Shown piece after piece: positions 3,260 to 6,358 of a DNA stretch of 64,000 bases. Position 1 is the first letter of the stretch. Every line of letters begins with the position of its first letter. The stretch lies in the sequence record PP554575; one strand, written 5' to 3'. A model generated the notes under the pieces. That model saw only the letters and a program-made list of their open reading frames with translations. It had not been told where the DNA came from and made no database searches. This DNA is from Escherichia phage PMBT16. A program made the position numbers and the translations under genes.

Positions 3260-4300
3260 ATGTCAAAACCTAGTTTTCCATTAGAGATTTGGGCAGAGGA
3301 GGATCAGGTTCTGCCTAACACCCACAGACAGAACAGGCTACGCCCGATTGATGATTTGTGGAGAAAAGGTTGGGATCTTGGTCAAAAGCCCTCATGTGAA
3401 GAACTTAACTATATTTTCAATATGCTCGGGACTTGGGCAAAATACATCGCTGACGAGCAGATCCCCGCTCAAGAAGGCCGTTATCTGGTACGTGATAATA
3501 ACTTGAGTGATCTTTTGAACATTCCTGTTGCCCGTAGAAACCTTGGGATTATTACTAAGGAAGAGGCAGACGCCAGGTATGTAAAAGTTACAGGTGATAC
3601 AATGACAGGCCCATTGGGTTTGCAACGTATCAACTTTAAAGCTGCCGAGACAGATAAGGCTTGGATAGAGACAACTATTGGCCCAGATAAGACAACTCTC
3701 GACTTTGGGTTAAGTGATAATACCGGGTCGTTTGATGATGGTGGTACATCTACAGTGGATGCGTTCCGTTGGAGATTCCAGCCAACTCAGCCGGATATTA
3801 ATCCAGAGTTCACTTTGATGTACCTTAACGCGATCACGGCTAACCGTGCGCTGTTGAAAGTGGTAGGCAATGTTGAAGTTGTCGATAACATGAGGTGCAA
3901 TAACCTTACTATCAGCAATACAGCGACATTCACCAACTGTAATGTGGCTAGTCAGTTGACGGCTGGGTCAGTGTATGTTAATGGTGGTGCAAGTTGTGAC
4001 AGTATGGTTGTAAGAAGCCAGCACTGTGTTGTCGGTAACAGAAATGTGGTTCGCTCTGTGAACGGAGTGACGGCTAACGGTAACGGTGATGTAACGATCA
4101 CTATCCCGCAGACAGGTGTGCAAGACATCAGAATCGGTGCAAGACTTGTGGACGGAGTTTCTGAATCTCCAATCCGCAACGGCTACGTTGTCACAGGCTG
4201 GCATTTCGGTGACAAAAAAGAGATGCGTGGTTCAACCTACTGGGCAGGACCTTTACAAAAACTTGTAAATGGTCAATGGATCACTGTTAATTATGCATAG
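3260..4300 (+). CDS. Tail fibre / receptor-binding protein, paralogue A
   Basis: Fibre hinge-like motif NLSDLLNIPVARRNLG; full-length paralogy with 5315..6358; shared C-terminus QKLVNGQWIT(V/I)xYA; followed by a Tfa-type chaperone gene. Confidence 0.6.
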   Translation: MSKPSFPLEIWAEEDQVLPNTHRQNRLRPIDDLWRKGWDLGQKPSCEELNYIFNMLGTWAKYIADEQIPAQEGRYLVRDNNLSDLLNIPVARRNLGIITKEEADARYVKVTGDTMTGPLGLQRINFKAAETDKAWIETTIGPDKTTLDFGLSDNTGSFDDGGTSTVDAFRWRFQPTQPDINPEFTLMYLNAITANRALLKVVGNVEVVDNMRCNNLTISNTATFTNCNVASQLTAGSVYVNGGASCDSMVVRSQHCVVGNRNVVRSVNGVTANGNGDVTITIPQTGVQDIRIGARLVDGVSESPIRNGYVVTGWHFGDKKEMRGSTYWAGPLQKLVNGQWITVNYA

Positions 4301-4314
4301 ATCGGAGGACTAGC

Positions 4315-4899
4315 ATGAAAATACTTCAAGAGTTTAAACTTTACCAACCGGGATCTGGCGAATACCGCACCAACAAGGAAACCAAGGAGCTGACCCCTCA
4401 AGAGGTTGAGGATTACACAGCATACACTGGGTATTTTTTACGTAATGATGATGGCGATTGGTATGTGCAGTCACGAACATTGCGACAAGAAAATCCGGGT
4501 TGTATCTTCCTACTTGTTGACGAGAAGGGAATTCTTAAGACATCTACAGAAGAACCTGATGCCTTATGGCCTGCTCCAGGTCTTCGTGTGGTTATCGCCA
4601 AAAAAGAAGAGGTACCAGAAAACATTATGCTTCACCACGACGCTTTGCGTTTAGTTGGTGATGAATTTGTCACAGATAATGAATTCTTTGTTCAACAGGC
4701 AGAGGGTGTCATAGAGACAGAACTTGCTTGGGCTACTGCTAGAATTGGTGCCTATCAAGACATGATTGACCTTGAATATGATCTTACTGATGACCAGAAA
4801 CGTAACATCAGAGATTTGAAAATGTACAGGGTAAAACTTCTTGAAATAGATACATCTAAAGCCCCTGACATTTTCTTCCCGGAGCGACCTACCCTCTAA
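4315..4899 (+). CDS. Tail fibre assembly chaperone (Tfa-like)
   Basis: C-terminal motif YRVKLLEIDTSKAPDIFFPERP resembles the conserved C-terminus of caudoviral tail fibre assembly proteins; sits directly downstream of a fibre gene; RBS GGAGGA upstream. Confidence 0.6.
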   Translation: MKILQEFKLYQPGSGEYRTNKETKELTPQEVEDYTAYTGYFLRNDDGDWYVQSRTLRQENPGCIFLLVDEKGILKTSTEEPDALWPAPGLRVVIAKKEEVPENIMLHHDALRLVGDEFVTDNEFFVQQAEGVIETELAWATARIGAYQDMIDLEYDLTDDQKRNIRDLKMYRVKLLEIDTSKAPDIFFPERPTL

Positions 4900-4910
4900 G
4901 AGGAGGTGTT

Positions 4911-5225
4911 GTGGAGTTGGATTTGGCGGCATTGTACGGTATCTGCATGGGTACCGTTGTCCCGATCTGTGTATGGGCTTTCAACCAGTGGCACACCAAA
5001 TGGAAAGGCATTTCCAAGAGGTTGGATGAACTGGAGAAAGACCTCATCTTAGTGAAAAACAGTATGGTTACAAAAGATAAACTTGATTCCGTTATCGAGA
5101 CCCGGTTAAGCAAGCTAGAGGCCGATATTAACGACCTTAAGCAGGATGTCAGGACAGATGTCTCCGGTATCCGAGCTGATGTACAAAAGATTTTGCACAT
5201 GCTCGTAGAGCATAGTAAAAGGTAA
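4911..5225 (+). CDS. Membrane-anchored coiled-coil protein (i-spanin-like or exclusion-protein candidate)
   Basis: GTG start after RBS GAGGAGG; N-terminal hydrophobic segment ALYGICMGTVVPICVWAF followed by charged heptad-rich region; terminator hairpin just downstream. Confidence 0.35.
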   Translation: MELDLAALYGICMGTVVPICVWAFNQWHTKWKGISKRLDELEKDLILVKNSMVTKDKLDSVIETRLSKLEADINDLKQDVRTDVSGIRADVQKILHMLVEHSKR

Positions 5226-5233
5226 ACAAAGGT

Positions 5234-5268
5234 CAGAACGGAAAGGACTCCGTTCTTGCATTTTGTTC
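5234..5268 (+). terminator. Rho-independent terminator overlapping the next promoter
   Basis: CAGAACGGA-AAGGACT-CCGTTCTTG hairpin followed by CATTTTGTTCTC. Confidence 0.6.
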
Positions 5269-5284
5269 TCTAAAGTGTTAAAAT
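5256..5284 (+). promoter_or_regulatory. sigma70-type promoter for tail fibre paralogue B
   Basis: TTGCAT-17 nt-TAAAAT, 30 nt upstream of ATG at 5315. Confidence 0.5.
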
Positions 5285-5314
5285 AGTCCTAAGGAATTTT
5301 CTCAGGAGAACGCG

Positions 5315-6358
5315 ATGACTAAACCAGTTATCCCTCTTGATATTTGGGCCAATCAGGATGTTGTGCTTGAAAATACGGGAGAGTTGAATAAGTCTCAACC
5401 AAAAAAAGAAGAGAGATTGAAAGGTTGGGATATGACACAAAGAGTGGCATGTGAAGTTGTTAACTTTGAACTTCACATGCTTTCTGCGTGGTTAAAGCAT
5501 CTAACAGAAGATGTTGTCCCAGGATGGGATAATAGATTCTTAAGGGTCACTAATAATCTAGCAGACGTTCCAGACAAAGCTGCTGCACGTCAAGTTCTCA
5601 ATGTATACTCGCCTGAAGAAATGGACGATCTGTATGTTGACAAGTCTGGAGACATAATGACTCAGACTCAAACTTTAGGTCTTCAAAGAATCGAGTTTGC
5701 ATCTGCGTCAACAGACAATGCGGCAATATATACCACCATAACTCCAGACAAGACGACGATGGATTTCTGGATTATGGACAACATCGGTGGTGCTGACGGC
5801 ACAGACCTTGATGATCCTTCTCACCAAATAGACGGGTTCCGTTGGAGATTTCAACCTTCTGGTGGGCAGCCTGTGTTTTCGGCTATGAAGCTCAATGCTA
5901 TAACTGCCAACCGTGCAAGACTGGCCATCCAAGGAAATCTTGAATGCAACGATGCAAAAAGTTCCTCTGCAAATGCCAATGCGGTCACGATACCAAGAGC
6001 CACTGTTAACGGACAACAATCCTGCGGAAGCGCTCAAATAGGTGGAAGAGTTGATTGTAACGATGAAACAGTCAGGGGTCAATATGCAACAGTTGGTGGA
6101 AGAAACGTGGTCCGCAGGGTAAATGGTAACGGCGCAGACAGTAGTGGTAACCTTACTATCCCTATGCCCAGCAGAGGGGTTGATGATGTAAGGATAGCAA
6201 ACCGTTTCAAAACCACCTACAGAGAGTCAAGAGTCTACCCTGGACATGTGATGTGCTCTGGTAACTACGCTTATAAACACCCTTATCAAGGTGATTACTG
6301 GACAGGTGCTATCCAAAAACTTGTAAATGGTCAATGGATCACTATATCTTATGCTTAA
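5315..6358 (+). CDS. Tail fibre / receptor-binding protein, paralogue B
   Basis: Same architecture as 3260..4300 (N-terminal PL(E/D)IWA, hinge motif NNLADVP..AARQVLN, C-terminal QKLVNGQWITISYA) with a diverged central region; own sigma70 promoter upstream. Confidence 0.6.
   Translation: MTKPVIPLDIWANQDVVLENTGELNKSQPKKEERLKGWDMTQRVACEVVNFELHMLSAWLKHLTEDVVPGWDNRFLRVTNNLADVPDKAAARQVLNVYSPEEMDDLYVDKSGDIMTQTQTLGLQRIEFASASTDNAAIYTTITPDKTTMDFWIMDNIGGADGTDLDDPSHQIDGFRWRFQPSGGQPVFSAMKLNAITANRARLAIQGNLECNDAKSSSANANAVTIPRATVNGQQSCGSAQIGGRVDCNDETVRGQYATVGGRNVVRRVNGNGADSSGNLTIPMPSRGVDDVRIANRFKTTYRESRVYPGHVMCSGNYAYKHPYQGDYWTGAIQKLVNGQWITISYA

Follow-up and report, generated by a model that had tools for sequence, protein, structure and literature searches.

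Paralogous short tail fibre genes flanking a single Tfa-type chaperone gene in a Vequintavirus genome, and evidence for gene conversion at their 3′ ends

The window analysed here, a stretch of 64,000 nucleotides (nt) from Escherichia phage PMBT16 (sequence record PP554575), carries two paralogous fibre genes, which we call STF-A and STF-B (for short tail fibre, STF), with a Tfa-type assembly chaperone and a small membrane protein encoded between them. Judged by their sequence matches, the products of the two fibre genes are two separate short tail fibres of the Mu S type, each with a joint of the phiTE type. Comparison between genomes shows, in addition, that gene conversion within each genome maintains identity over the last ~10-16 codons of the two genes. 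Most simply read, this pattern reflects a need for both fibres to fit the single Tfa, with conversion preserving their compatibility. As to why there are two of them, we lean, with a confidence that stops a little short of even, towards the view that STF-A and STF-B serve non-equivalent positions or roles on the baseplate, and not only two receptor specificities.

Both proteins match PHROG 4465 ('tail fiber protein') from end to end (profile 1-342 of 342; 1.8e-171 for STF-A and 4.1e-166 for STF-B), and they align with each other at 43% identity over 356 columns (BLASTP, E 2e-94), with 52% nucleotide identity between the genes. The homology of the two fibres, which had been proposed from the letters and open reading frames of this DNA alone (hereafter the sequence-only reading), is thereby confirmed, as is the C-terminal motif that they were said to share, the two C-termini reading LQKLVNGQWITVNYA and IQKLVNGQWITISYA. 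What did not survive alignment is the description of the pair as having conserved ends and a diverged centre. Identity stands at 43% over STF-A residues 1-60 and 35% over 61-115, rises to 54% over 116-200 (with a peak of 70% at 119-148), drops to 20% over 201-250, recovers to 51% over 251-285, falls again to 33% over 286-330 and ends at 75% over 331-346. The longest well-conserved block is therefore the central one, at 116-200, whilst the N-terminus is average and only the last 16 residues are sharply conserved; the pairwise alignment that was meant to map a divergence boundary shows divergence peaking in two places, in the shaft (201-250) and in the Mu-S-like head (286-330). Nor does the centre look like the receptor-contacting part: the segment that aligns with the head of Mu S (PDB 5YVQ) is 286-343, and 201-250 behaves like a low-constraint shaft. 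Indeed, 201-250 is the fastest-evolving segment in every comparison, and longer single-copy orthologues carry insertions of 16-32 residues there, both of which argue for a tolerant shaft and not a receptor site.

The domain layout can be read from either end. STF-A 1-108 matches the N-terminal part of the short tail fibre of phiTE (PDB 9CUY, 1.4e-19), as does STF-B 1-83 (1.3e-9), and residues 3-92 of the phiTE fibre make up its docking joint with wedge protein 1 of the baseplate. At the other end, STF-A 286-343 aligns with Mu S 440-501 (5YVQ, a complex with TfaMu; 1.7e-6, phmmer), and 5yvq_A was the only significant Foldseek match of the STF-A AlphaFold2 monomer (2.3e-7); STF-B gave no direct Mu S match in the PDB sequence search, and its tie to Mu S runs via STF-A only (4.7e-8). 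STF-A is thus laid out as a docking domain (~1-108), a mid domain and shaft, and a Mu-S-like head (286-346), and STF-B follows the same domain order with a diverged docking domain. The N-termini of both match the phiTE fibre and show no Mu-type attachment to the wedge-3 docking loop, so the architecture is chimeric, with a phiTE-type N-terminus and a Mu-type C-terminus, and 'Mu-like' holds for the shaft and head only.

Both fibre genes close with a 62-nt repeat, 84% identical between the two, that contains a perfect run of 30 nt encoding QKLVNGQWIT. Within the last 16 codons, 11 of the 12 identical residues are encoded by the identical codon, compared with 50 of 137 elsewhere, and ten consecutive identical codons have a probability of ~4e-5 at the background rate of codon sharing. 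The paralogues of the related genome L008 likewise have identical tracts, which differ from the tract of the window by three synonymous changes common to both L008 copies. Such identity within genomes, coupled with synonymous differences between them, strongly indicates that gene conversion took place once the lineages had separated. In a more distant sister clade of six uncultivated contigs (L010, L011 and L017-L020), the final 240 nt of STF-A and STF-B are 72-80% identical and include perfectly matching runs of 15-110 nt whose places differ from contig to contig, and in L010 and L011 the head regions of the two paralogues are 87-100% identical at the amino acid (aa) level, with their N-terminal domains and shafts at 38-41%.

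The 194-aa protein between the fibres had been taken for a Tfa-type chaperone, and rightly so: its residues 121-192 match Pfam Caudo_TAP (PF02413) at 45.8 bits, where the gathering score is 22.1 (E 8.5e-12), and the protein matches PHROG 136, 'tail fiber assembly protein' (2.4e-36). The locus holds one Tfa gene only, the first base of which lies 15 nt downstream of the last base of the STF-A stop codon; STF-B is without a Tfa of its own. In Mu, according to secondary descriptions, the variable N-domain of TfaMu binds the distal fibre, its conserved C-domain drives trimerisation, and the protein stays on the virion. Here, too, the N-domain is more variable than the C-domain (37% against 53% identity between the window and L010, and 23% against 36% between the window and phage Av-05). 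We posit that the single Tfa would act as TfaMu does on Mu S and start the trimer folding of both fibres at the C-terminal element they share, and it is presumably because one Tfa nucleates both fibres there that this end is conserved. At the extreme C-terminus the tails of the two fibres vary together within a genome (NYA/SYA, QTL/QTL), and the tail reads NLN in the single-copy phages Av-05 and R7. A further feature of this chaperone is an insertion of 13-22 residues near the N-terminus (around residues 18-40 of the window protein), present in all two-fibre lineages examined and absent from five of five one-fibre relatives (L004, L005, L006, L007 and L012); it may be an adaptation to serving two fibres.

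Relatives with a single fibre bear on the origin of the second. Avunavirus (Av-05) and Seunavirus (GAP31 and Salmonella phage R7) carry one fibre, then Tfa, a 104-aa protein, a 157-aa protein, one of 87-89 aa and a fibre of 584-602 aa, and the STF-B of Vequintavirus occupies the exact place of their 157-aa membrane-protein gene. That gene (L004:5949-6422, L005:5997-6470 and L006:5961-6434, the loci of Av-05, R7 and GAP31) is conserved and encodes a multi-pass protein with at least three hydrophobic segments, which matches no family and has no homologue anywhere in the 64-kb window. STF-A, which lies in the ancestral position, is 48, 45 and 41.5% identical to the single-copy orthologues, and STF-B 38-39%. 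Among the relatives compared, no correlation was seen between the sizes of the wedge and baseplate genes and the presence of one fibre or two. The head of STF-A is 59% identical to that of the Phapecoctavirus STF, where the STF-B head has no match; searched against 1.84 billion representative proteins, the latter (280-347) recovers its own cluster and STF-A only. Compared with the L010 lineage, STF-A stands at 73% identity and STF-B at 48%, the stretch of STF-B, Tfa and the 104-aa protein falling at 45-52% and the flanking genes at 63-78%. The neighbour-joining tree splits the paralogues into a clade of B copies (98% bootstrap) and a clade of A copies (64%), which points to a single old duplication. 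From these comparisons we infer that STF-A is the ancestral copy, and that STF-B is an old extra copy that took the place of the membrane-protein gene and is changing faster.

Just one gap of any size occurs in the locus, the 89 nt ahead of STF-B, and in it lies a predicted promoter (TTGCAT, a 17-nt spacer and the extended -10 element TGTTAAAATA) that is identical to P030 of rV5 (22274-22310, minus strand, Table S4). Four lineages with STF-B proteins of just 48-78% identity all carry the motif TTGCATTTT...TG[C/T]TAAAATA without variation. Five copies of the extended -10 motif TGNTAAAATA are present in the window, where 1.0 would be expected by chance, at positions 5276, 31307, 32639, 41543 and 54120, all on the plus strand; as four of the five lie in genes annotated in BASEL as replication or small early genes, the motif may not be specific to late genes. 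A 43-nt segment at 5226-5268 contains a hairpin (fold -16 kcal/mol, z -3.85) that is weak or absent in L008, L010 and L011, and because it is strong in the window but without conservation in other lineages, its function is uncertain.

Whatever its origin, the second copy has been kept along with the first. STF-A is full length in ~116 isolate genomes (100 records at least 99% identical, 15 at 95-99%), as is STF-B (73 records at least 99% identical, 42 at 95-99% and 1 at 90-95%), and all 10 metagenomic contigs, from at least three further lineages, keep the two-fibre arrangement. Between the window and a relative of 95-97% identity, the ratio of non-synonymous to synonymous substitution rates (dN/dS) is 0.015 for STF-A and 0.044 for STF-B, i.e. 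strong purifying selection. With both copies full length and under such selection, the suggestion that the second might be a pseudogene in relatives fails. The only possible disrupted copy that we saw is in phage V18 (NC_041937.1, 22208-23244), where the STF-A match falls into two pieces and spans 1037 nt and not 1038; a frameshift, or an error in the sequencing of that record, could account for it.

How, then, might two such fibres be used? In the scheme that we propose, two separate homotrimeric fibres would be matured by one Tfa. STF-A would be the likely binder of the terminal receptor, glucose I of the lipopolysaccharide (LPS) outer core, because its head type is common to one-fibre relatives that use the same receptor, and STF-B would be an add-on fibre. 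The docking domain and shaft differ between the paralogues in every two-fibre lineage examined, with the heads homogenised in one clade, and it is this combination of distinct mounting parts and like heads that makes non-equivalent places or roles on the baseplate the likeliest reading in our eyes. The sequence-only reading had instead suggested dual receptor specificity. Put in full, homotrimers of STF-A and STF-B would compete for one wedge-1 site, giving mixed virions with two heads for two LPS-core variants and so a wider host range. Several observations suit this: the heads strongly differ in the rV5 clade (33% at 286-330), the docking-domain invariants are common to both proteins, a single density of STF class is reported on the phage Bas54, separate promoters could set the ratio of A to B fibres, and Vequintavirus phages infect hosts with K-12, R1 and R3 cores. 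Set against them are the six sister-clade contigs, which keep both genes with near-identical heads and distinct N-termini and shafts, and the finding that on K-12, 18 two-fibre Vequintavirus and 8 one-fibre Justusliebigvirus phages share the same terminal receptor, outer-core glucose I. Deletion of waaG alone lowers the plating of phage LL12 to 5e-6, hence no redundancy is seen there, and isolates show essentially no allelic variation of the fibre locus (Maffei 2021), unlike typical host-range determinants. We therefore regard competition for one site with two specificities, the main rival of our scheme, as rather unlikely; as a general reason for two copies, dual specificity is opposed by these comparative data, and it is less likely to be the whole story.

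Two further accounts were weighed. Perhaps the paralogues co-assemble into heterotrimers (A2B or AB2), with Tfa nucleating at the shared C-terminus and the asymmetry aiding docking on a monomeric wedge protein. The near-equal lengths of the proteins (346 and 347 aa), their common domain order, the identical C-terminal nucleation element maintained by gene conversion, the constant retention of both genes together and the one fibre density of STF class on Bas54 would all fit. However, six indels of 1-4 residues separate STF-A and STF-B, some of them in the shaft at 201-250, and would put the chains out of register; the genes appear to be separate transcription units; and in phi92 the model fitted to the density of fibre III was a predicted trimer built from the single-copy gp147 alone. 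To our knowledge there is no heterotrimeric phage tail fibre of this type, and we hold the idea to be highly improbable. Nor do we give much credence to STF-B being a spare, with STF-A alone a working virion fibre and STF-B non-structural (a decoy or an assembly factor) or condition-specific. STF-B does evolve faster (see the comparison with the L010 lineage), has a head private to its clade and a separate predicted promoter, and none of the peptides or masses sought for it turned up in the mass spectrometry table discussed below; but its dN/dS of 0.044 and full-length state in ~116 genomes and 10 metagenomic contigs, its retention of the docking-domain invariants and of the Tfa-related C-terminus, and the naming of gp30, its rV5 counterpart, among the detected virion proteins in the text of the rV5 paper (PMC3606486) make this very unlikely.

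Our own preference for two fibres in non-equivalent places has to contend with a number of points that weigh against it. The same text reports gp30, gp32 and gp33 (the counterparts of STF-B, Tfa and STF-A) among those that total phage proteomics had found, but the supplementary mass spectrometry table of that paper (PMC3606486, Additional file 5; 19 proteins) shows none of the six peptides and none of the protein masses sought for the three, and its Table S3 marks 'MS evidence' for gp34, not for gp30 or gp33. On the Bas54 baseplate, cryo-electron microscopy at 7-9.5 Å shows one fibre density of STF class with a Mu-like C-terminus, at a resolution too low to tell the paralogues apart. In an alignment of 36 sequences, 12 of the 22 invariant columns fall within the first 60 residues of both paralogues, which one common docking site would fit equally well. 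The promoter of STF-B is a predicted one, and it is by analogy with Mu that Tfa is taken to bind the shared C-terminal element directly. The AlphaFold2 monomers built from the 36-sequence alignment are poor (mean predicted local distance difference test scores of 63.7 and 61.5); they served only for the Foldseek check, and for this reason the domain boundaries rest on sequence matches.

It is nonetheless worth spelling out where placement and conversion might lead when taken together: there could be two structurally different places on one baseplate, or places alternating around its six wedges, filled by fibres whose heads recurrent conversion keeps chaperone-compatible. We consider this fuller picture doubtful. 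If it is true, a common assembly factor would be driving the concerted evolution of receptor-binding tips, a process from which the rV5 clade would have escaped except for the last ~30 nt, gaining a second, private head.

The 104-aa protein encoded between Tfa and STF-B was described in the sequence-only reading as a small membrane-anchored coiled-coil protein, and this description stands: it has one hydrophobic segment (Kyte-Doolittle 19-residue mean of 1.91 at residues 5-23) and a heptad register with 80% hydrophobic a/d positions, and one transmembrane domain is listed for rV5 gp31 in Kropinski's table. It matches PHROG 5345 ('unknown function', 1.1e-48); neither this protein nor the 88-aa one encoded downstream of STF-B reaches the cut-off of any Pfam or NCBIfam family. 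Orthologues of the former are found in Av-05, R7, GAP31, anhysbys and phi92 (gp149, annotated 'lipoprotein'), and since it follows Tfa in all one- or two-fibre relatives examined, it is not a by-product of the duplication. The 88-aa protein likewise has orthologues in relatives. In the sister clade its orthologue is extended to 104-140 aa (L010:6076-6432, L011:6067-6447, L018:4537-4959 and L019:4534-4956), and in L017-L020 the extended frame overlaps the end of STF-B. We considered the 104-, 88- and 157-aa proteins as lysis proteins (holin or spanin) and rejected this, as no family supports it (XhlA scored just 15.8 bits, at 0.016, where the cut-off is 34.7), and the BASEL genomes have a putative holin annotated at a different place.

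Placing the locus in its genome is straightforward. Positions 3000-6700 of the window are 99.7% identical to Escherichia phage APECc02 over their full length, and 116 phage records, nearly all of them Vequintavirus (rV5-like), are at least 90% identical to this segment; by these matches the window is a Vequintavirus genome, another isolate of that genus. All four open reading frames (346, 194, 104 and 347 aa, plus strand) are confirmed at their coordinates by the list of open reading frames (Table 1). BASEL curated records call the same four genes 'short tail fiber protein', 'tail fiber chaperone', 'hypothetical protein' and 'short tail fiber protein', and their rV5 equivalents are gp33, gp32, gp31 and gp30, after which come gp29 (88 aa) and gp28 (581 aa). 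The order of wedge, baseplate protein, gp34, STF-A, Tfa, gp31, STF-B, gp29 and gp28 matches the annotations of AlexBoehm, APECc02 and rV5. Matches to annotated relatives and published descriptions agree, furthermore, that this is the host-recognition region of an rV5-like phage, as had been claimed.

Table 1. Features of the fibre locus, in positions of the window
Feature	Coordinates	Strand	Basis or remark
STF-A, short tail fibre paralogue, rV5 gp33 orthologue, 346 aa	3260..4300	+	Open reading frame, PHROG 4465, domain matches
3′ gene-conversion tract, STF-A copy, 62 nt	4238..4299	+	84% identical to 6296-6357
Tfa-type assembly chaperone, rV5 gp32 orthologue, 194 aa	4315..4899	+	Caudo_TAP, PHROG 136
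Transmembrane and coiled-coil protein, rV5 gp31 orthologue, 104 aa, GTG start	4911..5225	+	PHROG 5345, hydropathy, heptads
Terminator-like hairpin, then T-rich run	5235..5256	+	Just 3′ of gp31 stop codon; scan and fold
Predicted STF-B promoter	5256..5285	+	Kropinski 'late promoter P030'
STF-B, second short tail fibre paralogue, rV5 gp30 orthologue, 347 aa	5315..6358	+	Open reading frame, PHROG 4465
3′ gene-conversion tract, STF-B copy	6296..6357	+	Repeat of 4238-4299
88-aa small protein, rV5 gp29 orthologue, annotated membrane protein	6370..6636	+	PHROG 1322, 1.1e-32

Further genes on either side of the locus deserve mention. Upstream of STF-A, the 690-aa protein at 1175-3247 (the rV5 gp34 orthologue) matches the N4-type 'non-contractile tail sheath protein' families PF23845 (4.1e-80) and PF23844 (7.8e-13), which correspond to a TIM barrel and an N-domain, and it has a Calx-beta domain as well; the published view of it is that of a fibre recognising the N4 glycan receptor, which these domain matches fit. 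After the 581-aa fibre, an open reading frame of 1875 aa (8440-14067) is the orthologue of rV5 gp27, 'lateral tail fiber protein with intimin domain'. Several shorter genes replace this region in APECc02 and L008, which fits the allelic variation reported for the large lateral fibres. On a different matter, 16-21 unannotated 'Campylobacter phage' records with Campylobacter jejuni as host (e.g. MG065635.1, MG065662.1 and MG065672.1) are 99% identical to E. coli rV5-like phages here; the records seem to carry the wrong name, or may stem from coliphages that contaminated stocks of Campylobacter phage.

The locus is real, ordinary and already known. Kropinski 2013 (PMC3606486) described the paralogy of rV5 gp30 and gp33 (42.3%) and raised the idea of 'two LPS chemotypes', and Maffei 2021 described two paralogues with a chaperone and their homology to the single-copy phi92-like locus and to Mu GpS/GpU. 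With the paralogy, the chaperone, the Mu homology and the two-chemotype idea published in 2013 and 2021, the locus is a rediscovery. What is new is that STF-B stands in place of the 157-aa gene, that its predicted promoter is conserved, that it evolves faster and that its head is without other relatives. Also new, in a small way, are the recurrent 3′ gene conversion and the sister clade with homogenised heads, which sharpen the question of why there are two copies without answering it. The matter is of some practical weight: rV5-like phages rank among the coliphages most often isolated and find use in cocktails for therapy and biocontrol, and the terminal-receptor step of these phages is attributed to the short fibres. 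Knowing whether the virion mounts one fibre or both, at which places, and whether STF-B recognises another LPS-core variant would guide host-range engineering and help explain resistance mutations of the waaG type.

Among known systems, T4 gp12 is a functional analogue, being a baseplate-attached trimer that binds the LPS core as its terminal receptor. HHpred matches to it were reported by Kropinski (PMC3606486); no chain of T4 gp12 was among our PDB sequence matches at E up to 1 for STF-A or STF-B. It differs in being encoded by a single gene and in depending on the chaperone gp57A, not on Tfa. The STF of phiTE (Certrevirus, Vequintavirinae; 9CUY and 9MJN) has a homologous N-terminal joint, but beyond it that fibre consists of a coiled coil and immunoglobulin-like domains, and phiTE is flagellotropic.

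A further system for comparison is GpS (gp49) with GpU (gp50, TfaMu) of Mu. The likeness lies in the homology of the STF-A C-terminal head, in a Tfa encoded directly downstream, with its variable N-domain and conserved C-domain, and in the use of an LPS-core glucose as receptor. However, Mu docks on a loop of wedge protein 3, whereas the docking domain of the STFs belongs to the phiTE type; Mu has a far longer shaft (504 against 346 aa for the whole protein); and the STF-B head has no sequence match to Mu S. Whilst Mu inverts DNA to switch between two pairs of fibre and chaperone, here the fibre genes have the same orientation, with one chaperone gene, and the second lies behind a predicted promoter.

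The genes for gp147 (fibre III), the Tfa gp148 and gp149 of phi92, and likewise their Phapecoctavirus equivalents, form an orthologous locus in the same order but with one fibre and not two. The gp147 fibre has been fitted as the downward fibre III under the wedge protein gp145, and phi92-type phages use the same terminal receptor, glucose I. Between this type and STF-A only the N-terminal ~76 and the C-terminal ~59 residues align, so that the description of conserved ends and a different centre, which fails for the two paralogues, does hold there. Finally, the rV5-type locus shows no substantive difference from that of the window, although the published 'very similar paralogs' for its two fibres understates a divergence that leaves 43% identity: gp33, gp32, gp31 and gp30, as also found in Bas48-Bas59, are the same genes in the same order and of the same sizes, and their proteins are 99-100% identical among the listed isolates.

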